Below, one piece after another: positions 1,227 to 61,214 of a stretch of DNA of 64,000 nucleotides. The DNA comes from Candidatus Omnitrophota bacterium (GTDB lineage: Bacteria > Omnitrophota > Gorgyraeia > Duberdicusellales > 4484-171), in assembly GCA_043823745.1 (NCBI GenBank), contig JBDRAN010000003.1:2958-66957 (forward strand), read 5' to 3'. Below the pieces are notes generated by a model. That model was not told the origin of the DNA. It saw nothing but the letters and a program-made list of their open reading frames with translations, and made no database searches. A program made the translations under genes and the position numbers. Every line of letters begins with the position of its first letter. Position 1 is the stretch's first letter.

Positions 1227-1310
1227 TATTACTACCTTACTACCTTGCGATGCAAAAAAAGCTTGCATTTTAAAAAGGTAGTTACTATAATAGATAAAAG
1301 GAGGTGCATT

Positions 1311-1685
1311 ATGGGTTCAAAAAAGTTTGTAGGTCTTATGGTAGTCGCTCTTTTAATCGCGTCCTTCTGTGTTCCCGCCTTTGCTCAAAGCAAAAAGGAA
1401 TACATGGACCAACTTTCCGCCGCACGCTCAACCTTTATATCTGAGCGCGACAAACTGCATGACCAGGACCGGACACTACGGGTCAGCTGGCATAACGAAA
1501 GAGCGGAATTATACAAGCAGCTGAAAGCAAATCCTGGCGATAGGGCAATCCAGGGACAGATCAATGATGGCGCAAAGAAATTTTTAGCCGACAAGAAAGA
1601 TGTATATCAGAGGCTCGAGCAGCAGCGGAAAGACTGGCTTCAAGCTAAGAAAGAAATAGGCAGTCAAATCAAAAGCGCATCTTAA
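1311..1685 (+). CDS. Secreted hypothetical protein (signal peptide, Lys/Gln-rich helical)
   Basis: RBS AAGGAGG precedes ATG 1311. The N-terminus KKFVGLMVVALLIASFCVPAFA has a signal-peptide pattern. Confidence 0.55.
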   Translation: MGSKKFVGLMVVALLIASFCVPAFAQSKKEYMDQLSAARSTFISERDKLHDQDRTLRVSWHNERAELYKQLKANPGDRAIQGQINDGAKKFLADKKDVYQRLEQQRKDWLQAKKEIGSQIKSAS

Positions 1686-16507: not shown

Positions 16508-16657
16508 AATCACTGTTACAGGATTCTATTTACCCCCCCCTCAATACTGTACCTTGATACCTGACACTTCAATATTTAATAAACTACTTACGCCGAAAAA
16601 ATACATTTGCAACCCCTCTCGAATTACATGCATTTTTTCGGCATACCTCGACGTAAT

Positions 16658-16719
16658 CTGAAATTTGCCTTAAAATTACAGGCAAATTTCAGCCCCACAG
16701 GGCGTCCCTGGGGGACAGC
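16658..16719 (+). repeat. 13-bp perfect hairpin (ctgaaatttgcct...aggcaaatttcag) followed by a diverged copy of the 26-nt repeat unit (cagccccacagggcgtccctgggggacagc)
   Basis: The 29-nt segment matches the tandem-array unit at 28992-29101 with about 4 mismatches. Confidence 0.55.
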
Positions 16720-16825
16720 GTCGACCCCTGTTCAAGCTACGGGTGGGGCAGAAAATGCCCCCATCTTCATCGAAGTTCTCGGTGCATTTTCTGGGTAAAA
16801 AGATTTTACTTAAAAAAATAAAATT

Positions 16826-16933: not shown

Positions 16934-18277
16934 ATGGCTGAAGACAAACTGACGAAAATAGTATCTCTTTGCCGCAGGCGGGGTTTTGTATTCGGGGGTT
17001 CAGAGATCTACGGTGGCCTTGCGAGCTTCTGGGATTACGGACCCCTGGGGGTAAGGCTTAAGAAGAAAATCAAGGATGTCTGGTGGGATACCTACGTAAA
17101 CCGCCGCAACGACATCGTCGGCCTTGATTCCAGTATCATCATGCATGAAGATGTTTTCCGTGCCTCCGGCCACTTGGAAGGTTTTGCTGACTTGCTGGTT
17201 GATTGCCCGGGATGTAAGAAACGCTTTCGCCTTGATAAGCTTGAAAAAATTTCAGAAAACCTTTATTCCTGCCCTGATTGCAGCGCCAAAATCGATACTC
17301 AAAAAAGTAAAGCGCGTAAATTTAACCTCATGCTTAAAACCAACGTCAGCGCGACCGAAGATGAACCAACCTACGGTTACCTGCGACCTGAAACCGCACA
17401 GGGCATTTTTACTAACTTTGCGAATGTGCTCGATACCACTCACAAAAAACTCCCCTTAGGCATCGCACAAATCGGAAAAGCCTTCAGAAACGAAGTAACT
17501 ACGGGGAGCTTTATCTTCCGAATGAAAGAATTCGAGCAAATGGAAATTGAGTACTTTGTTAACCCGCACGATTCCGACGAATACTACCGCCAATGGGTCA
17601 CGGAACGCTTTACCTTTTACGTTGAAAAAATCGGCTTGAGCAAGGAAAACTTACGGCTGCGCGAGCATGGCAAAGAAGAGCTTGCGCATTACGCTAAATC
17701 CTGCACCGATATCGAATTCAATTTTCCGTTTGGCTGGAGCGAGCTCGAGGGAATTGCGAACCGCGGAAACTTCGATTTAACCGAACATTCACGGGTAAGC
17801 AAAAAAGATCTTTCTTACTACGACGACCAGAAAAAAGAACGATTTGTCCCTTTTGTCATCGAACCTTCCAGCGGCGTGGACAGAACGTTCTTTGCGGTAA
17901 TCAGCGACGCCTACTATGAAGAAGTGGTCAAAGATAAAGTACGCGTGGTATTGAAGTTTAAACCCTCGATGGCCCCGTACACTGCGGCAGTATTTCCCTT
18001 ACTTAAAAATCGGCCGGAGCTGGTCGAACTTGCAAAAAATATTTTTTGTGATATAAAAGAAAAATTCCCTGCCGTATACGATGATTCCGGCGCGATCGGG
18101 AAACTTTATCGCCGGCAGGATGAAATCGGAACGCCATTCTGTATTACCGTTGACGTAGAAAGCCTGAATGACGGTAAAATCACCGTCCGCGACCGCGACA
18201 GCATGCAACAGGAACGTATCGCTGCGGATAAAGTATTAGAATTTCTTGTGGAAAAAGTAACTAACGCTTACCATTAG
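16934..18277 (+). CDS. glyQS: Glycine--tRNA ligase, alpha2 homodimeric type
   Basis: Class II aaRS motifs over 447 aa, similar throughout to the archaeal/eukaryotic-type GlyRS. Confidence 0.9.
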   Translation: MAEDKLTKIVSLCRRRGFVFGGSEIYGGLASFWDYGPLGVRLKKKIKDVWWDTYVNRRNDIVGLDSSIIMHEDVFRASGHLEGFADLLVDCPGCKKRFRLDKLEKISENLYSCPDCSAKIDTQKSKARKFNLMLKTNVSATEDEPTYGYLRPETAQGIFTNFANVLDTTHKKLPLGIAQIGKAFRNEVTTGSFIFRMKEFEQMEIEYFVNPHDSDEYYRQWVTERFTFYVEKIGLSKENLRLREHGKEELAHYAKSCTDIEFNFPFGWSELEGIANRGNFDLTEHSRVSKKDLSYYDDQKKERFVPFVIEPSSGVDRTFFAVISDAYYEEVVKDKVRVVLKFKPSMAPYTAAVFPLLKNRPELVELAKNIFCDIKEKFPAVYDDSGAIGKLYRRQDEIGTPFCITVDVESLNDGKITVRDRDSMQQERIAADKVLEFLVEKVTNAYH

Positions 18278-27901: not shown

Positions 27902-28137
27902 CTTACGCTATCTTTTAGAATAGGTTTTTAACTATATATAAAAACCTTGCCCTTCATTCATTTTCTTATATAATCGAACATTAAGGAACGCAGCCGAACT
28001 AGGCTGCGTACTTACTTAGTGTAGTGAAAACGTCAGTGGTTTTGGTCAAAATAGTCCAATTTCCTACAAAATACTACAAAATGAGCAAACGCGAAATCAT
28101 AGTAAAAACCTAACAAAATCAATATAAATTACCGTTT

Positions 28138-28210
28138 GCCCCTATAGCTCAAAAGGATAGAGCGCGGCCCTCCTAAGGCTGAAATCCCTGTTCGATTCAG
28201 GGTGGGGGCA
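28138..28210 (+). tRNA. tRNA-Arg (anticodon CCU)
   Basis: The cloverleaf folds by hand: acceptor GCCCCTA/TGGGGGC, D-arm GCTC..GAGC, anticodon loop CTCCTAA, T-arm CCCTG-TTCGATT-CAGGG. No encoded CCA. Confidence 0.85.
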
Positions 28211-28370
28211 GTTTGATTTTGCCCCTGCAAAATCAAACAGAGCAATTGAGCAATCGAAAATAGAACAATAGAAAAAATAAAAGCTCCATTGCGACCGAGG
28301 ACGTAATGTCCGAGGGAGTGCCGAGGCCTCCGGACGAAGCCGGTCTAATGTTCAATTGTTCGATTGTTCA
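28211..28370. repeat. Structured repeat element copy B (hairpin gtttgattttgc-ccct-gcaaaatcaaac + conserved 27-mer), immediately 3' of tRNA-Arg
   Basis: See copy A at 606-725. The hairpin stem shows compensatory substitutions. Confidence 0.6.
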
Positions 28371-28488
28371 AAACTAATATACGGCATTTATATCTGAAAA
28401 ACTCTCTGTTTATTAAAAGGCTATTGGCTTCGCTGAAAAATTCTTCTCCTGCGCTCTACGCTATGCGATACACGAATAGATAAAAAAC

Positions 28489-28517
28489 TTGACAAGAAAA
28501 TTTGCCTGGGATATAAT
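28489..28517 (+). promoter_or_regulatory. Consensus sigma-70 promoter TTGACA-N17-TATAAT
   Basis: ttgacaagaaaatttgcctgggatataat. It drives the riboswitch leader. Confidence 0.75.
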
Positions 28518-28559
28518 CCAGTTGCTCTTTAAAATTTAGAAGCAAACGTTTGCGGTGCT

Positions 28560-28720
28560 TGTAAACCTCGGCAGAGAACGCAGTTCTTTGACGGGTAAAG
28601 CTTAATAGGGAACTCCGTGAAAATCGGAGACACTCCCGGTGCTGTAAAGGAGGACGAACGGCGCAATGATGCCACTATCTCGTGTTACACGGATGGAAAG
28701 GCGCGCCTAGTAGAATGAAT
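28560..28720 (+). promoter_or_regulatory. Cobalamin (AdoCbl) riboswitch #1
   Basis: Conserved core GGGAAC..CGTGAAAATC..CCCGGTGCTGTAAAGG..GCCACT matches the B12 element consensus (B12 box GCCACT at 28671-28676). Confidence 0.8.
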
Positions 28721-28823
28721 CCTATAGTCAGAAGACCTGCCGCAAAAAAAGTAATCTATTTTTAGGTTTTACGCGGAAATAATAACCTAAATTTTTACTT
28801 TCGGGATAAGAAACCAGGGTGCA

Positions 28824-28854
28824 CCCCGACGCAAATGACGCGTCGGGGTTTTTT
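28824..28854 (+). terminator. Rho-independent terminator, probably the riboswitch expression platform
   Basis: ccccgacgc-aaatgac-gcgtcgggg + TTTTTT. Confidence 0.75.
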
Positions 28855-28855
28855 A

Positions 28856-29130
28856 ATGAGACAGCAGCTTTTTCAGAGCGAAGCGATAGAAAAACTGCGT
28901 AGTCGAATTAACCCCGTCGAACGCGCCAAAATTATCTTGCGTACAACGTACGCGTGAAAATTTTGGCGTACGCGGTGAGACGGGGTGATGAGACAGCCCC
29001 TCTGGGCGTCCCTGGAGGACAGCCCCTCTGGGCGTCCCTGGAGGACAGCCCCTCTGGGCGTCCCTGGAGGACAGCCCCTCTGGGCGTCCCTGGAGGACAG
29101 CAGCGTTTTCAGAGCGACGCGATAGAAAAT
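28856..29130 (+). repeat. Compound repeat: 4.x tandem copies of a 26-nt unit (gacagcccctctgggcgtccctggag, 28992-29101) nested between approximately 35-nt direct repeats (gagacagcagcNttttcagagcgaMgcgatagaaaa at 28856-28894 and 29095-29130)
   Basis: Period 26 nt, so non-coding. The track ORF 28954..29166 is repeat-generated. Confidence 0.85.
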
Positions 29131-29186
29131 TACCCTAAGGAAAGTTTAACCCAAATTTTTCATTAGAAAAATTTGCCCGACGGGCA

Positions 29187-29403
29187 GCCCTTTCAAAAGA
29201 AAGGGCTGGGTTAACCCCGCCCCAATTTTATTGAGCGGCGGAGCATTAAGGGAAAACATTGATTCTATTGATTAAGTTTATGTTTAAACAATAACCCCTT
29301 ATTTATAAAATCGGGGCGGCCATCCTTAATATTCATATTAAGGTAGGCAAAACCACAGCCCTTTTCCGAAGGGCTGGGTCCAGCCCATTTACAAATGGGC
29401 TGT
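29187..29403 (+). repeat. Three hairpins sharing the stem cagccc/gggctg (29187-29210, 29355-29375, 29381-29402) plus the perfect palindrome ccttaatattcatattaagg (29316-29335)
   Basis: Each hairpin was checked by reverse complementarity. Confidence 0.6.
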
Positions 29404-29552
29404 GATTTACCTGCACCTTTTTGGTGCGAACTTATTTGTTGCAATAACAACAGTGTACGCAAGTTACAAAGCTTCTGCATTTCTAATGCAAATTTTGGGT
29501 TTAAGGTTATTTGATAGGCGCCATAAAAACATTTAAAGGGGGGGTGATTGGG

Positions 29553-29669
29553 ATGGAGAAGAAACCGCGCAAGATAAAGAAAAACGTTATTGCCTGTCGT
29601 AAAAAGTGTAAAGCGACCGGCGCAGGCTTATCGCATTATGTACTCTTGGAGAAGGAGAATAAATCTTAA
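29553..29669 (+). CDS. Small ORF, 38 aa (MEKKPRKIKKNVIACRKKCKATGAGLSHYVLLEKENKS): candidate precursor/leader peptide
   Basis: Strong RBS AAAGGGGGGG sits 8 nt upstream. The stop overlaps the ATG of the downstream rSAM gene (TAATG). Not in the ORF track, which omits ORFs under 60 aa. Confidence 0.45.
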   Translation: MEKKPRKIKKNVIACRKKCKATGAGLSHYVLLEKENKS

Positions 29670-31069
29670 TGTTGCAAAAAATAATAGGTATGAAAACTCA
29701 AACCTATTTCAATACGGGCGAAGGGGATAGCATCCAACCCATAGACATCGGCCACAGAGATTATACTTGTTTAGTTTCCGCCGATACGGCATTCTGGGCG
29801 CTGGTTAGAAAAGATAGATTGGCCAGCGCCCAGGCCGGCTCGTCGCTCTTAAGCGAATATCGTAAAAAAGCGAAGACCTTCTTGGGCGGAATGAACACGT
29901 TGCGGTTTAAATTAAAACCTTCAGCCGTATATTTTAATCCTACCGACAGATGCAACCTCGATTGTTGTTATTGTTATATTCCCGCAGACTTACGTAAAAA
30001 TGGTACGCATATGTCCGCCCTAAAGCTTTCGAAAGCGCTCGGGATTCTTAAGAATTATTTTAAGCCCAGTCTTTCACGGGGCCAGAAACCTCAGATCATT
30101 TTTCATGGGGCTGAACCACTACTTAATAAACAAGCTGTTTTTACCGCAATAGACAGATATGAGAAAGATTTTCGTTTTGGCATTCAGACGAACGGAACAC
30201 TTTTGGACGGTAACGCGCTGGAATTCTTGACTTCACGAGGCATAAGCATAGGCCTTTCTCTTGATGGTCACATACATAGCGTAGCCGATCGATTGAGACG
30301 GAACTGGAATGGTGAAGGCGTTTCCCGAAAAGTCATTGAGGTGATGAGCCGGCTTAAAGGGTATCGTAATTATTCCGTTATCTGCACCGTAACACGAAAA
30401 AATATGTCCTCACAGGCCAAGATAGTCGAGTTTTTTCATCGCATGGAAGTACCAATGTGCATGCTCAATCCCGTTCGTTGCACGCTCCCCGGCGGCTATA
30501 AGCAAAAGCCATCAGACGAAAAAGCCGCGACGCATTATCTGAAAGCCTTGGATCACGCCTACAATCTCTACCAGAAGTCCAACCGTAAACTGGTGGTGGC
30601 AAACTTCGCGAATGTTCTGATAAGTATTCTCGCGCCCACAGCCAGGCGGCTTATGTGTGATATCTCCCCATGTGGGGCGGGAAGATGTTTCTTCGCAATT
30701 TCGAGCAAGGGTAACATGTTCCCCTGCAGCGAATTTATAGGAATAAAGAAGTTTAGAGGCGGCAATATTTTTAGGGATGATATCCGTGCAGTCTTAAAGA
30801 CGGCGCCGTTCAAATCTGTTACCGAAAGACGCATTGAAGATATTACTCCCTGTTCGCGCTGCGCTATCCGTCATTTTTGCGGTGCGCCATGTCCCGCTGA
30901 AGCTTGGACTATAAACGGCTCAATGGTTTCAAGAGGCGCGTTCTGCAGGTTCTACGAAGAACAGGTACGATACGCGTTTAGAGTAATCGCCGATAATAAA
31001 GAAGGCGCGTACTTATGGGATGAGTGGGATAAGGATACGCTTACGACATTCGATATTACAAGAAAATAA
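29669..31069 (+). CDS. Radical SAM enzyme with C-terminal SPASM/twitch domain and an approximately 95-aa N-terminal extension
   Basis: CNLDCCYC (CX3CX2C) at residues 97-104. C-terminal Cys-rich CDISPCGAGRCF...CSEF...CSRCAIRHFCGAPC. RBS AAGGAG. Confidence 0.8.
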   Translation: MLQKIIGMKTQTYFNTGEGDSIQPIDIGHRDYTCLVSADTAFWALVRKDRLASAQAGSSLLSEYRKKAKTFLGGMNTLRFKLKPSAVYFNPTDRCNLDCCYCYIPADLRKNGTHMSALKLSKALGILKNYFKPSLSRGQKPQIIFHGAEPLLNKQAVFTAIDRYEKDFRFGIQTNGTLLDGNALEFLTSRGISIGLSLDGHIHSVADRLRRNWNGEGVSRKVIEVMSRLKGYRNYSVICTVTRKNMSSQAKIVEFFHRMEVPMCMLNPVRCTLPGGYKQKPSDEKAATHYLKALDHAYNLYQKSNRKLVVANFANVLISILAPTARRLMCDISPCGAGRCFFAISSKGNMFPCSEFIGIKKFRGGNIFRDDIRAVLKTAPFKSVTERRIEDITPCSRCAIRHFCGAPCPAEAWTINGSMVSRGAFCRFYEEQVRYAFRVIADNKEGAYLWDEWDKDTLTTFDITRK

Positions 31070-31089
31070 CAGGGATTGAGATTATTTGT

Positions 31090-31731
31090 ATGACAAGATT
31101 AATTTTGATACGTCATGGCGTAACCGAATGGAATAGAGAGAAACGTTACTGCGGCCATAAAGATATAGGTTTAAATAACGAAGGTAAGTCTCAGGTTACG
31201 TTGTTATCTCACAGGCTTAATGCGGTCGGATTCGATAAAGTATATTGCAGCAATAGGAAACGTGCGATACAGACCGCGCGAATACTCTTTAAGCAGATAA
31301 AAATAATCCCGGATCGAGGTTTACGCGAAATCAATTTCGGTGTTCTTGAAGGATTAAAGCATGAAGAAATTATGGAAAAGTACGCAGATATATACAAGAA
31401 GTGGCTAAAGGATCCATTCAAAAACAGAATTCCTAAGGCAGAACCGATGAATGTTTTTAAAAAGAGAATCGAAAACGCCCTGTGGAATATCATCCGAGCT
31501 AATTCCGACAAGACGATTGCCGTTGTTTGCCATGGCGGAGTGATAGGCATGTTTGTGAACGAGATATTGAAGAATAGGAATTTCTGGCGCTACGTGCCAT
31601 CGCCGGCAAGCGTTACGGTAATAGAACATAAGGAAGGAAAGTCTAAATTAAAAAAGTTCAATGACACAACCCATCTTATGGCTTGCCCCGTTAGAAAGAC
31701 GGGGTTTTCTAACGGGGTAAATAATGAGTAA
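31090..31731 (+). CDS. cobC: Alpha-ribazole phosphatase (histidine phosphatase family)
   Basis: RHG catalytic motif (LIRHGVTEWN), 213 aa, in a cob context. Confidence 0.75.
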   Translation: MTRLILIRHGVTEWNREKRYCGHKDIGLNNEGKSQVTLLSHRLNAVGFDKVYCSNRKRAIQTARILFKQIKIIPDRGLREINFGVLEGLKHEEIMEKYADIYKKWLKDPFKNRIPKAEPMNVFKKRIENALWNIIRANSDKTIAVVCHGGVIGMFVNEILKNRNFWRYVPSPASVTVIEHKEGKSKLKKFNDTTHLMACPVRKTGFSNGVNNE

Positions 31732-32245
31732 AATGACTTTCATTTTAGGGGGCGCACGGAGCGGTAAGAGTCGATATGCCGCTGAAATAGCGAAAAAGCT
31801 TGGAAAGAAGACGATATTCATCGCTACAGCGGCTGCGCTGGATGATGAGATGAAAGAAAGGATACGCCTTCATAAAATTTCGAGGCCGAAGGGATGGGGC
31901 CTTATTGAGGAACCCATGGATTTAAGCGGTGTTATTGTCGGATTGAAGCCGACATACGATGTGGCAATAATCGACTGCATAGGATTGTGGGTCTGCAATC
32001 TTTTAATGGCCGACATGAAAGACGACGCGATAGAGAAAAGAATAAAGAAGCTGACAGGCAGCATTTTCAAAGCTAAAGCCGGTCTTGTCGTTATAGTATC
32101 AAATGAAGTGGGGGGAGGAATAGTTCCCGCGGATCCGCTATCGAGAAGATTCCGCGATCTGCTTGGGTTAGCGAATCAAATGATAGCGGCGAAAGCAGAA
32201 AGCGTTATTGTGATGCAGGCGGGAATACCGGTGAAAATAAAATAG
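31724..32245 (+). CDS. cobU: Bifunctional adenosylcobinamide kinase / adenosylcobinamide-phosphate guanylyltransferase
   Basis: P-loop GGARSGKS. About 170 aa, matching the CobU/CobP family. Confidence 0.85.
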   Translation: MSKMTFILGGARSGKSRYAAEIAKKLGKKTIFIATAAALDDEMKERIRLHKISRPKGWGLIEEPMDLSGVIVGLKPTYDVAIIDCIGLWVCNLLMADMKDDAIEKRIKKLTGSIFKAKAGLVVIVSNEVGGGIVPADPLSRRFRDLLGLANQMIAAKAESVIVMQAGIPVKIK

Positions 32246-32390
32246 ATAACACCCGGCCTTATCGCACCTTGGCATAAATGATTGCCAAGTACGCCCTTTC
32301 TGGGCAGGATAGGCCGGTAACGCAGAAAGCGGACACTCGCCCATCCAATTGGGCGAGGTGTGCGCACTTACTGTGCAAGGAGCTAAAATC

Positions 32391-33449
32391 ATGAAATTAT
32401 TGAACGAAACGCTTTCAAAAATTGAAAAAATAAACAATTCACTATCCAAAGAAACTCAAGGTAGGCTCGACAATCTGACCAAACCACAGGGAAGCCTCGG
32501 GAGGCTGGAGGATCTGGCCAAACAGATCGTGGAGATAACAGAAGCTAAAAATCCGAAACTAAAAAATAAGGTTATATTTATAATGGCCGGAGATCATGGT
32601 GTCGTTGAAAATAATGTGAGCGCTTTTCCCCAAGAAGTAACCTCTCAGATGGTATATAATTTTTTAAATGGCGGAGCGGGAATAAATGTGCTGGCAAAAC
32701 ACGTGGGCGCACGAGTCGTTGTCGTTGATATGGGGGTAGTATGCGAGCTTAAGAACAACCAGGCTCTTGTAATAAAAAAGGTAAATTATGGCACAAAAAA
32801 TATGGCAAAGGGCCCTGCGATGTCAAAAGACGAGGCTATCAAATCCATTGAAAATGGCATAGAAGCATTCAAGGGAGAACTGCCGAACGGAATAGATATA
32901 GTTGGGACAGGGGATATGGGTATCGGAAACACTACTCCTTCAAGCGCTGTTGTCTCTGCGATAACCGGACGGAACGTAGAAGAGGTGACGGGCAGGGGCA
33001 CCGGGATCGATGACAAAACCTTGGCCTGCAAAATTGCCGCCATCAAAGAAGCTTTGAACGTAAATAAGCCGGATCCAAAAGACGGAATAGATATCTTGTC
33101 TAAAGTGGGTGGATTCGAGATCGGTGGATTAATAGGAGTAATGCTGGCAGCCGCGGCGCATAGGATACCGGTGGTAATAGACGGATTTATTTCAGGGGCG
33201 GCTGCCTTGATAGCGTATACAATAGAGCCGAAAGCCAAAGATTACATGATAGCTGCCCATTGCTCGGTCGAGCAAGGCCATAAAGCCGCGCTCGCATTCT
33301 TAGGGCTTAAACCCGTCCTTGATTTAAACTTAAGGCTGGGAGAGGGAACCGGAGCGGCATTGGCTATAAACATAATAGAGGCCGGCACTAAAATATTAAA
33401 TGAGATGGCGACGTTTGAAAGCGCCGATGTTTCCAAAAAGGACGAATGA
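32391..33449 (+). CDS. cobT: Nicotinate-nucleotide--dimethylbenzimidazole phosphoribosyltransferase
   Basis: CobT motifs GDMGIGNTT and E...GEGTGA. RBS GGAG precedes ATG 32391. Confidence 0.85.
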   Translation: MKLLNETLSKIEKINNSLSKETQGRLDNLTKPQGSLGRLEDLAKQIVEITEAKNPKLKNKVIFIMAGDHGVVENNVSAFPQEVTSQMVYNFLNGGAGINVLAKHVGARVVVVDMGVVCELKNNQALVIKKVNYGTKNMAKGPAMSKDEAIKSIENGIEAFKGELPNGIDIVGTGDMGIGNTTPSSAVVSAITGRNVEEVTGRGTGIDDKTLACKIAAIKEALNVNKPDPKDGIDILSKVGGFEIGGLIGVMLAAAAHRIPVVIDGFISGAAALIAYTIEPKAKDYMIAAHCSVEQGHKAALAFLGLKPVLDLNLRLGEGTGAALAINIIEAGTKILNEMATFESADVSKKDE

Positions 33450-34189
33450 AAAGATTTCTAATCGCTTTACAGTTTTTAACCATCCTTCCTTTTAGTATTA
33501 AGGGAAAAATAGAAAAGGAAGATTTTGGCAGATCTCTTGTCTATTTTCCAATAGTCGGTCTTTTATTAGGTTTTTTTCTGGCGAGCATAGCTTATATTTC
33601 ATTATCTCTTCCGCCTATGGTTAGAAGCATCTTAATTCTGGTTGTATGGATGGTCATAACCGGCGGAATACATTTAGACGGGTTTGCGGATACCTGCGAC
33701 GGTTTTTACGGAATTCGCCCCAGGGAAGAGATTTTAAAAATAATGCGGGACAGCCGCATCGGAACTATGGGCGCTGCAGGCCTTGCGATGCTCCTACTCT
33801 TTAAATTCGCGATACTCTCGAGCATCCGGCCGGAAGATTTATGGAAGATTTTGGTAATAACGGTAGTATTCGCCCGATGGTCCCAGGTATTTGCCTGCTC
33901 TATGTCCGGATACGCGCGAGATGACGGCAAAGCCAAATATTTTATAGAATATGCGAAGAAGAGTCATATGTTCATAGGAGCTTTATTTATACTACTTCTC
34001 AATGGGTTTCTTATGGGTATAAAAGGCATGATCTTATTCGTTATCTTGTCAGCGGTGATATTTTTATTCATAAAATATGCGGAAAGAAAAATTGGCGGCA
34101 TGACAGGAGATACGATCGGCGCGACGAACGAAATTGCTGAGGCATCGGCGCTAATATTTAGCTTAATATTATTAAATTATAAAATATGA
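33446..34189 (+). CDS. cobS: Adenosylcobinamide-GDP ribazoletransferase (cobalamin synthase)
   Basis: Polytopic membrane protein with CobS motifs LTILP and DGFADT. Confidence 0.85.
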   Translation: MKRFLIALQFLTILPFSIKGKIEKEDFGRSLVYFPIVGLLLGFFLASIAYISLSLPPMVRSILILVVWMVITGGIHLDGFADTCDGFYGIRPREEILKIMRDSRIGTMGAAGLAMLLLFKFAILSSIRPEDLWKILVITVVFARWSQVFACSMSGYARDDGKAKYFIEYAKKSHMFIGALFILLLNGFLMGIKGMILFVILSAVIFLFIKYAERKIGGMTGDTIGATNEIAEASALIFSLILLNYKI

Positions 34190-36768: not shown

Positions 36769-37719
36769 ATGCGGATCGTTTATATTCTCGTGTCATATCT
36801 ATTAGACCTCGTATTCGGAGATCCGCCCTCATTTCCGCATCCGGTAAGGGGAATCGGCTGGGTTATCAAGAAATTAGAAGGGCCGTTCAGATATATTGTT
36901 AAAAATGAACGCATAGCCGGCGTTTTTTTCGCCTGTACGATAATAATCTTGATATGGCTCATAACTTTTACGGTAACGCAGACGGCATATTTTTTTAATA
37001 ATTATCTTGGCGCTATTATTTCGATAATCATTATTTATACTTCATTATCGGTAAAGGACCTAGGCATAGAAAGTCTGGCAGTCTTTAGTGCGTTAAAAGA
37101 CGGAAATCTGAATAAAGCGAGGACAGCTCTTTCTAAAATAGTGGGAAGGGATACGTCAAATCTGGACGAATGGGAAATAATAAGGGCTACAGTAGAGACT
37201 GTCGCCGAAAATATCGTTGATGGCATAATCTCGCCTCTATTGTATGCCTTTTTGGGCGGCGCTTCCCTCGCTATGGCATATAAAGCTATTAATACGTTGG
37301 ACTCTATGGTCGGTTATAAAAATAAGCGGTATATAAATTTTGGATGGGCGTCTGCGAAGATCGATGATATTGCTAATTTTATTCCGGCTAGGCTAGGAGT
37401 AATATTTTTGTGTCTGGCAAGTTGGATAAGCGGCCATAATCCCATCAAGGCATGGAATATTGCAATACGTGATGGAGCGAAGAATCCCAGCCCTAATAGC
37501 GGTCTTCCTGAAGCAGCTATTGCCGGCGCCCTTGGAGTTCGATTGGGGGGATTGAATTATTATAATTCGACAGCGGTTCAGAAATCATATATAGGAGATG
37601 ATATTAATTCTTTAGATAAATCACATATAAAAGAAGCCGTCAAGATTGTTTACATCACATCTGGTCTATTTGTAATTACAGGAGCGGTTTTATTCTGGTT
37701 GATATGTAAACCCCGTTAG
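36769..37719 (+). CDS. cbiB: Adenosylcobinamide-phosphate synthase
   Basis: CbiB/CobD membrane-protein motifs (HPVRGIG...). Confidence 0.85.
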   Translation: MRIVYILVSYLLDLVFGDPPSFPHPVRGIGWVIKKLEGPFRYIVKNERIAGVFFACTIIILIWLITFTVTQTAYFFNNYLGAIISIIIIYTSLSVKDLGIESLAVFSALKDGNLNKARTALSKIVGRDTSNLDEWEIIRATVETVAENIVDGIISPLLYAFLGGASLAMAYKAINTLDSMVGYKNKRYINFGWASAKIDDIANFIPARLGVIFLCLASWISGHNPIKAWNIAIRDGAKNPSPNSGLPEAAIAGALGVRLGGLNYYNSTAVQKSYIGDDINSLDKSHIKEAVKIVYITSGLFVITGAVLFWLICKPR

Positions 37720-37756
37720 AGAACTTCATTCTCTAACGGGGTAAAGGGAGACTCTC

Positions 37757-61006: not shown

Positions 61007-61214
61007 TAAACCCGATTTGCAACCCAGCCGCCATAATAGCCATCTCGGTGCCTAACTTGCCCATCATGGGCACATCCACTTAAAGAGCAACGGCTTCCGG
61101 AGCTACTTTAGGCCTGTGGCTTTGCGCCCCCCGATTTCTCGAGGTTTACCCTTATCGGCAATTTAGATATACTATATTTTTTGGAAAGTTTCAAGGAAGA
61201 ATGAAAATAAGAAT

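Follow-up and report, generated by a model that had tools for sequence, protein, structure and literature searches.

The stretch of DNA analysed here (the window: 64 kb of contig JBDRAN010000003.1, assembly GCA_043823745.1, from a Candidatus Omnitrophota bacterium) contains a cobalamin (B12) riboswitch that is separated from the operon downstream of it, cbpAB-cob, by a long leader full of repeats and hairpins. Overall, we consider it probable that this locus represents an ordinary terminating cobalamin riboswitch, followed by a palindrome-rich repeat insert of approximately 650 nt that is carried as a tolerated passenger, and that the operon is still under riboswitch control. Most likely, the insert is not a new regulatory device and was acquired recently. 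It probably consists of nested palindromic DNA, similar to MITEs (miniature inverted-repeat transposable elements) and repetitive extragenic palindromes (REPs), together with a young minisatellite, and would be either selfish or derived from slippage.

The evidence for this interpretation comes mainly from the comparison with six related Omnitrophota cbpAB-cob loci, whose CbpB proteins share 77-88% identity with that of the window (88% in the closest relative) and whose operons are 75-87% identical at the nucleotide level. All six relatives possess a conserved terminator (CAGGGTGCAACCCCG..CGGGGTTTTTT), which is followed by ..CCATnAAAATATAAAGGAGGTGATTGnnATGG after approximately 40-77 nt; this is the distance that separates the orthologous terminator from the matching Shine-Dalgarno sequence and ATG. 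An Rfam scan of four of them (L009-L012) located each Cobalamin aptamer directly upstream of cbpA (80-100 bits), with the end of the aptamer 100-172 nt before the cbpA start codon. In the junction alignment, the two flanks of the spacer in the window, ..GGGGTTTTTTAAT on the left and TTATTTGATAGGCGCCATAAAAACATTTAAAGGGGGGGTGATTGGGATGG on the right, abut on the sequence of the relatives. Since these flanks are contiguous in all six relatives, about 650 nt (approximately 28858-29506) are extra in this lineage. Its boundaries, with TTAAT on the left side and TTAT on the right side, are accurate to +/- 3 nt. The insertion directly follows the terminator U-tract, 45 nt lie between its other end and the cbpA start codon, and the inserted DNA has no homology in 62 kb of sequence from the relatives. 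Judged from these sequence alignments, the spacer is a lineage-specific insertion just after the terminator U-tract. The original prediction, which was made from the letters of the window, had offered a repeat insertion into the riboswitch expression platform as one possible reading. The insertion itself is borne out by the six relatives, but it lies just behind an intact platform and not inside it. The same prediction had named an absence of the repeats from related genomes as an argument against a functional leader, and they are indeed absent from the six related loci.

The riboswitch upstream of the insert belongs to a well-defined type. Its score exceeds the gathering threshold of the Cobalamin family RF00174 across the full aptamer (Table 1), and the expression platform expected for this family is represented by the terminator at 28823-28854, and the genes downstream are related to B12. 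The predicted promoter in front of the aptamer was recovered with a perfect match to the consensus, and the relatives carry TTGACA-17-TAATAA at the equivalent position. The terminator, predicted at 28824-28854, was likewise found again with a 10-bp stem (28823-28849) and a T6 tract, and aligns with the terminators of the six relatives. Only the predicted span of the aptamer (28560-28720) proved too narrow. Full aptamer, consensus promoter and terminator are shared with other RF00174 riboswitches that act through a terminator platform before cob/cbi/btu operons, and so is an operon for cobalamin salvage and the lower ligand downstream. The architecture is identical to that of the six Omnitrophota relatives, from which this locus differs in the distance between terminator and start codon (approximately 700 nt instead of 40-77 nt).

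If the riboswitch works as in the relatives, transcription would stop at 28854 when B12 is bound, while RNA polymerase would read through a 5' untranslated region of approximately 1 kb into cbpA when B12 is missing. Since none of the hairpins in the insert is followed by a strong U-tract, read-through to cbpA, whose Shine-Dalgarno sequence is intact, is expected and cbpAB-cob should remain riboswitch-controlled. At most, the insert might alter the stability or processing of the mRNA, provide RNase III sites or hinder the loading of Rho on the untranslated leader.

Table 1. Features of the riboswitch leader and its surroundings, in positions of the window
Feature	Position	Strand	Basis or description
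Single diverged copy of the repeat unit	16690..16719	+	27/30; in the 427-nt spacer before the glycyl-tRNA synthetase open reading frame
tRNA-Arg(CCT)	28137-28211		Upstream of the riboswitch promoter
Sigma-70-type promoter, TTGACA-17-TATAAT	28489..28517	+	12/12 consensus match
Cobalamin riboswitch aptamer, RF00174	28536..28758	+	92.2 bits, gathering score 31.5, model 1-189 (full)
Intrinsic terminator of the riboswitch expression platform	28823..28854	+	ACCCCGACGC-aaatgac-GCGTCGGGGT, then T6
38-nt repeat X, copy 1	28856..28893	+	ATGAGACAGCAGCTTTTTCAGAGCGAAGCGATAGAAAA
Lineage-specific non-coding insertion, approximately 650 nt	28858..29506		Junction alignment with six relatives
73-nt imperfect palindrome	28913..28985		CCCCGTC..CGCCAAAATT..GCGTAC aac GTACGC..AATTTTGGCG..GACGGGG
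38-nt repeat X, copy 2	28988..29129 (28988-28997 + 29102-29129)	+	Split at GACAGC^AGC by the array
Tandem array, 4.2 x 26 nt	28992..29101	+	GACAGCCCCTCTGGGCGTCCCTGGAG; Tandem Repeats Finder score 220, 100% identical units
MITE-like segment, 360 nt	29145..29504		25-nt inverted repeats (22/25), TTTAA on both flanks
CAGCCC..GGGCTG hairpin 1	29185..29208		10-bp stem; within a three-hairpin module, 29146-29214
Long-range 15-nt inverted repeat	29217..29319		14/15; encloses AT-rich 73 nt
Twin CAGCCC..GGGCTG hairpins 2 and 3	29356..29402 (29356-29376, 29381-29402)		
Ancestral 3' end of the leader with Shine-Dalgarno sequence AGGGGGGGTGAT	29507..29552	+	Aligns to TTATTTTGTAGAAACCAT..AAGGAGGTGATTG of the relatives
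cbpA, 38-aa modified-peptide precursor	29553..29669	+	TIGR04164, 41.1 bits, cutoff 35
cbpB, peptide maturase of the radical SAM/SPASM type; first of the large cob operon genes	29669..31069	+	TIGR04163, 667.6 bits, cutoff 375

The left half of the insert is organized around repeat X, a tandem array and a palindrome. Deletion of exactly 4 x 26 nt (28998-29101) restores an X copy (ATGAGACAGCAGCKTTTTCAGAGCGAMGCGATAGAAAA) that is identical in 36 of 38 positions to 28856-28893, which indicates that the array precisely interrupts the second copy of X at GACAGC^AGC. The direct repeats flanking the array (28860-28893 and 29096-29129) are 94% identical, and the nesting of the array within 35-nt direct repeats, as originally predicted, can be refined accordingly to the 38-nt repeat X. 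The sequences that follow the two X copies show no significant similarity to each other, as 73 of 500 shuffles were equally good. The number of 26-nt units had been given as four and a fraction, and 4.2 copies were found, without a single difference between them. This perfect identity implies a recent amplification. Each unit contains GGAGGA and is open in all six frames. In one register, CGTC forms the loop between its paired arms CCTCTGGG and CCTGGAGG; in the other, the loop is ACAGCC. For a single 30-nt unit, RNAfold returns the fold with the CGTC (CGUC) tetraloop, and the minimum free energy structure of the whole array is a mixture of both registers. The predicted gcgtac palindrome turned out to be the core (GCGTAC..GTACGC) of the 73-nt palindrome between the two X copies, and the region 28905-28992 folds at -41.3 kcal/mol (z = -5.8).

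In the right half, the ends of the MITE-like segment (29145-29169 and 29480-29504) match in 22 of 25 positions as an inverted repeat, whereas the best distant 25-mer inverted repeat in 200 shuffles reached at most 19 of 25. The three predicted hairpins with the stem cagccc/gggctg are all present, compared to an expectation of 0.02, and they are the only ones of their kind in the window; AAGGGCTGGGT is common to the first and the second. A perfect 20-nt palindrome, which had also been reported, does not exist; what comes closest to it is a hairpin of 9+2+9 nt (CCTTAATAT-TC-ATATTAAGG) at 29324-29343. Several further hairpins are present in the segment, and 5 of the 28 perfect hairpins of at least 8 bp in the window lie here within 250 nt of each other. 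The AT-rich loop of the long-range 15-nt inverted repeat harbors the only promoter-like site on the plus strand of the insert (29283-29311, TTTAAA-17-TAAAAT, 9/12).

The nested inverted repeats, the segment bounded by terminal inverted repeats and short AT-rich flanking repeats, the clustered GC-rich hairpins of 8-10 bp with their shared stems within an AT-rich genome and the identical array units suggest that the insert is a mosaic of small elements, non-autonomous or REP-like, and a young minisatellite, built in several steps. X would have been duplicated, with the 73-nt palindrome between its copies. A 26-nt hairpin unit might then have entered the second X copy at GACAGC^AGC, where there is a 6-nt microhomology, and slippage could have turned it into four identical copies. 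The 360-nt segment, with its 25-nt terminal inverted repeats, its TTTAA flanks and the nested REP-like CAGCCC..GGGCTG hairpins, would be a further, MITE-like component. From this we infer that the insert, or parts of it, may have been mobile.

The insert resembles the MITE and REP/REPIN families, although membership is not established for either. Bacterial MITEs located in leaders are known from the Correia repeat-enclosed elements of Neisseria (PMC2649163; reviewed in PMC10969869). Like these, the 360-nt segment is small, non-coding, intergenic and internally structured, possesses terminal inverted repeats of approximately 25 nt and short AT-rich flanking direct repeats, and is predicted to be co-transcribed with the downstream gene. 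Terminal inverted repeats around a short non-coding segment, as typical of MITEs, are found. In contrast, multiple dispersed copies were detected neither in the 64-kb window nor in the 62 kb from the relatives nor in phage and plasmid records. Moreover, a search of the window, the phage and plasmid records and viral contigs yielded no second copy and no parent insertion sequence (IS) with matching ends, and the sequence is unrelated to any described MITE.

The hairpins share with REP and REPIN elements, among them the CGTC-tagged REPs (PMC3116915, PMC3733652), that they are short, GC-rich, imperfect palindromes with stems of 8-10 bp, extragenic, embedded in an AT-rich genome, clustered or arranged as adjacent pairs, and located just downstream of a terminator. 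With lengths of 21-24 nt (CAGCCC hairpins) and 26 nt (the array unit, with its 8-bp arms), both fall within the range of extragenic imperfect palindromes of 20-40 nt. The REP tag, an unpaired GTAG or CGTC, is not seen in this form: the CAGCCC hairpins are tagless, and the CGTC of the unit is either in the loop or in a misfitting register. CGTC REPs are described as having a CGTC tag, a stem of 8-9 bp starting with A/T pairs, a loop of 4-5 nt and a CCA tail, and a tandem head-to-tail arrangement is described as negligible (PMC3733652). The 26-nt unit can be read as CGTC followed by an 8-bp stem, a loop and the second stem arm, but its loop comprises 6 nt, its stem begins with CC, a CCA tail is missing and its copies stand head-to-tail in tandem. 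Finally, there are only 3 + 5 copies in 64 kb, confined to the leader apart from the one at 16690, and no Y1 transposase was recognized among the scanned proteins of the window, which represent a minority of its open reading frames (ORFs).

Two other types of repeat were considered for the insert and rejected. It is not a CRISPR array, since the 26-nt units abut without spacers, and it does not represent an integron attC site, since GTTAACC does not fit the attC core consensus GTTRRRY.

The copy of the repeat unit outside of the leader is real (local-alignment score 45, compared to 20 +/- 2.4 for shuffled sequences) and precedes the ORF for glycyl-tRNA synthetase, which begins at 16934, by 215 nt. 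Outside of these 30 nt, the spacer upstream of glyQS and the leader share no similarity above shuffle level. The unit had been proposed to be a dispersed genomic element; this is supported insofar as the second location exists, and is weak insofar as it is a single extra copy in 64 kb. A search for the unit elsewhere, which had been suggested as well, did not reveal a related copy in genome, metagenome or viral collections. The 30-mer pattern used for this search (CAGCCCCNNNGGGCGTCCCTGG) gave seven hits in genome contigs and eight in metagenome contigs, which we regard as chance matches, since these contigs have a GC content of 58-70% and no similarity beyond the pattern; viral contigs contained no match.

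The spacer that holds this copy (16640-16800, before the glycyl-tRNA synthetase ORF) is itself highly structured (z = -5.9). Directly next to the copy there is a hairpin of 13 bp (CTGAAATTTGCCT..AGGCAAATTTCAG), and AAATTTGCC from this spacer recurs in the spacer of the riboswitch promoter (28498) and in the insert (29169). Another repeat with two copies, at 606-665 and 28211-28262, consists of a hairpin with a 12-bp stem (GTTTRATTTTGC..GCAAAATYAAAC) followed by 30 identical nt (AAACAGAGCAATTGAGCAATCGAAAATAG). The two copies are 27.6 kb apart and have the same orientation; one of them is located immediately after tRNA-Arg, and the other one follows an unannotated stretch ending with ..GGGTCCACCAG. 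A permissive Rfam scan of positions 1-900 found nothing. Since such other two-copy hairpin repeats exist, short palindromic repeats are characteristic of the genome.

Since the insert is absent from all relatives, there is no conservation or covariation that would argue for a function as RNA. The predicted fold of the 650 nt is nevertheless very stable, with -265.3 kcal/mol (z = -10.4) for the plus strand and -264.0 kcal/mol (z = -8.6) for the minus strand. This almost equal folding energy of both strands points to palindromes at the DNA level rather than to an RNA shaped by strand-specific G-U pairing. In a permissive Rfam scan of 28400-29700, Cobalamin was the only family recovered, and all other matches had E-values of at least 0.15 and scores far below the gathering scores. 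Coding capacity is not evident either. All ORFs of the insert with at least 20 aa were listed, and the six longest of them, when searched against Pfam, gave no match. The ORFs are short and, by inspection, lack ribosome-binding sites; the 71-aa ORF on the minus strand has no homologue, and translations of the array (104-aa query, both strands) matched nothing among 5.8 billion protein clusters. A convincing pair of promoter and terminator is present inside the insert on neither strand. The five promoter-like sites of the region compare to 3.3 +/- 1.4 in shuffled sequences, and the only terminator-like site on the plus strand of the insert is a weak 6-bp stem (29412-29428). The small RNA (sRNA) that had been put forward as an explanation of the leader is therefore unsupported, given the missing Rfam match, the missing promoter/terminator pair, the similar folds of both strands and the absence from the relatives. 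For the same reasons, a multi-hairpin region for processing or attenuation gains no support.

It is nevertheless possible, though unlikely, that the insert acts as a functional structured leader, which might offer processing sites for RNase III or RNase E, stabilize the 5' end, block Rho or provide a second attenuation step. Next to the very strong fold, the quartet CAGCCC/GGGCTG/CAGCCC/GGGCTG (29356-29402; segments 29350-29408) would fit this idea, as it can pair either 1:2 + 3:4 or 2:3 + 1:4, and it is known that MITEs such as the Correia elements, when located in leaders, can bring in RNase III sites and promoters (PMC2649163, PMC10969869). However, regulation does not require an insert that all six relatives with this operon and riboswitch lack, both strands have symmetric folding energies, and the perfect identity of the repeats reflects a recent origin and not long selection. 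Furthermore, no hairpin of the quartet possesses a U-tract, so that there is no terminator an attenuator could control. Quite unlikely is also an outward promoter within the insert, for instance at 29283-29311, that would partly uncouple cbpAB-cob from B12 control. This site is part of an AT-rich loop and precedes cbpA by 240 nt, and promoters borne by MITEs have been documented for the Correia elements (PMC2649163). But it matches the consensus in only 9 of 12 positions, as compared to 12 of 12 for the real promoter, its -10 element lies inside an arm of the 15-nt inverted repeat, and the number of promoter-like sites in the region is within the expectation from shuffling.

By analogy to known systems, one could also imagine that read-through exposes the tandem hairpins as a riboswitch-gated sRNA or protein sponge that titrates an RNA-binding protein, but we regard this as very unlikely. 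ANTAR targets consist of two adjacent hairpins with hexaloops whose first base is A and whose fourth base is G, and EutX and Rli55 are B12-riboswitch-controlled RNAs that sequester ANTAR proteins as decoys (PMC8934654). One register of the array yields three hairpins of the type CCUGGAGG-ACAGCC-CCUCUGGG, with 8-bp stems and A1/G4 hexaloops, separated by 4 nt, and, as in EutX and Rli55 (as summarized in PMC8934654), these tandem AxxGxx hexaloop hairpins follow directly on the terminator of a B12 riboswitch and would be transcribed on read-through. On the other hand, an A1/G4 match in a single repeated loop occurs by chance in about one of 16 cases, and in the competing register the same 8-nt arms pair around the CGUC tetraloop, as in the RNAfold result for one unit. 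In contrast to EutX and Rli55, the RNA continues here into the operon without a terminator before cbpA that would define the 3' end of an sRNA, the relatives have no array, and none of the five scanned response-regulator or HD-domain proteins of the window contains an ANTAR domain (PF03861). Sponges of the CsrB/RsmZ type present GGA motifs in their loops. The GGAGGA in every unit would be compatible with such a function, and 11 GGA motifs were counted, eight of them in the array. However, the PrrB_RsmZ model reaches only 11.7 bits with a gathering score of 44, and the array has no promoter or terminator of its own. The specific version of this idea, in which the four 26-nt units would serve as a B12-gated decoy for an ANTAR-type or another hairpin-loop-binding regulator, is extremely unlikely. 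If it were true, the array would be an Omnitrophota analogue of EutX and Rli55, fused to the leader of the cob operon and recently built from a REP-like unit.

A highly improbable explanation is that the insert, or the number of its units, is an assembly artefact, caused either by a chimeric join or by collapse or expansion of the repeat. No independent assembly spans the leader: a contig of a metagenome-assembled genome (MAG; GCA_018827245.1) is 99.94% identical to positions 30318-33749 of the window but begins only at 30318. Searches for proteins identical to the products of cbpB, tonB and cbpA (38 aa and 52 aa, from two alternative starts) gave nothing or contigs that end before the leader; exactly matching products of cbpA and cbpB are not on record, and the protein collection contains no ORF like the longest one of the insert or the translated array. 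Several points speak against an artefact. On the ancestral sequence the two junctions are only a few bases apart, which is what a true insertion should produce, and typical reads are longer than the array (110 nt). Moreover, the internal architecture, with its precisely interrupted X and its nested inverted repeats, is coherent, unlike a random join.

The interpretation as a passenger insert behind a working riboswitch has to be weighed against several observations. The insert rests on a single assembly. Read-through into cbpA and continued riboswitch control are themselves predictions from the sequence. The TTTAA flanks are weak evidence of a target-site duplication, since this motif is common in AT-rich DNA and four of its five positions are compatible with the inverted repeat. 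No related copy of the 30-mer core was detected in genomes (596 Gb), metagenomes (241 M records) and viral contigs, and the remaining 63 kb of the window contain no second copy of X, of the 73-nt palindrome, of the CAGCCC hairpins or of the 360-nt segment. Phage and plasmid records gave no blastn match to the insert as a whole, and no transposase or REP-associated transposase (RAYT) was recognized among the scanned proteins, a minority of the ORFs in the window. Repeat X also gave nothing in viral contigs, where one match to the inverted-repeat ends, in a phage contig with 30% GC, is isolated and was judged to be a chance match.

There are also some observations on the related loci that concern the same region. 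The closest relative (L009) possesses at the same spot after the terminator U-tract an unrelated extra piece of its own (2497-2535, approximately 35 nt) that contains GTCGAAGG twice. This might be taken as a hint that the position tolerates or attracts small insertions. What lies upstream of the cob operon is different in each relative; in L011, for instance, a thiamine pyrophosphate (TPP) riboswitch (2544-2668) and a gene of the Thi4 family are located immediately upstream of the cobalamin riboswitch. L013 encodes a 128-aa Y1 transposase (PF01797, IS200/IS605-type; 1236-1622, minus strand) 2.4 kb upstream of the cbpAB operon, and CAGCCC-type hairpins are absent from this locus.

The operon downstream of the leader appears to be undamaged, since its genes are full-length and align end-to-end with those of the relatives. 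Its start codon at 29553, which had been judged credible and lies approximately 700 nt beyond the terminator, is genuine, as shown by the match of the 38-aa product to the CbpA family TIGR04164. The CbpB ORF (466 aa) overlaps cbpA; both proteins of this adjacent pair score above the NCBIfam equivalog cutoffs (TIGR04164 and TIGR04163), and their context is that of a cobalamin operon. According to family matches, cbpB is followed by cobC, cobU, cobT and cobS, and 3' of cobS there are ORFs that align with the Aminotran_1_2 (cobD), CbiA/GATase_3 (cobQ) and CobD_Cbib (cbiB) genes of the relatives. The ORFs past cbiB presumably encode components of a B12 transporter, with names taken from the ORF list and the Pfam annotation of the relatives. 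CbpA and CbpB form the first cistron pair of a B12-riboswitch-controlled cob operon in every Omnitrophota relative examined (L009-L015), and CbpB homologues, which place the organism in Candidatus Omnitrophota, also occur in MAGs labelled as Elusimicrobiota, Nitrospirae, Armatimonadota and Chloroflexi. A full-text literature search retrieved no paper on the function of CbpA or CbpB, and nothing relevant was found in the literature on repeats in Omnitrophota. Hairpins of a further family (CCCCGTTAGARAA..TTYTCTAACGGGGTAAA) are situated at two gene junctions within the operon, between cobC and cobU (31686-31720) and between cbiB and the next gene (37710-37745). They could be stabilizing or processing hairpins within the operon, or another REP-like family.

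Two more repeats with units of 8 nt are located between tRNA-Arg and the riboswitch promoter, AGAACAAT with 4.5 copies at 28239-28273 and, in roughly inverse orientation to it, TGTTCAAT with 2.9 copies at 28349-28371. These tandem repeats could be protein-binding sites or products of slippage. At a greater distance, a c-di-GMP-I riboswitch (RF01051, 62 bits; 61015-61160, minus strand) carries a 63-nt insertion in one of its stems and lies in a region of 1.4 kb without any ORF of at least 110 aa.

The locus described here calls for caution. A textbook riboswitch has been displaced from its operon by 700 nt of repeat DNA, and neither of the two is visibly damaged. A long structured leader of this kind may be mistaken for a new regulatory RNA, by annotation pipelines as well as by readers. 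At the same time, if the organism or its DNA became tractable, the comparison of this locus with its insert-free relatives would be a small natural experiment on how well a transcription-terminating riboswitch tolerates a long, highly structured untranslated spacer, including the effects of such a spacer on Rho, on RNases and on the promoter activity of the leader itself. Omnitrophota are known almost entirely from MAGs, and repeats of this kind tend to break assemblies. The insert offers an initial view of the small families of palindromic repeats in this phylum.

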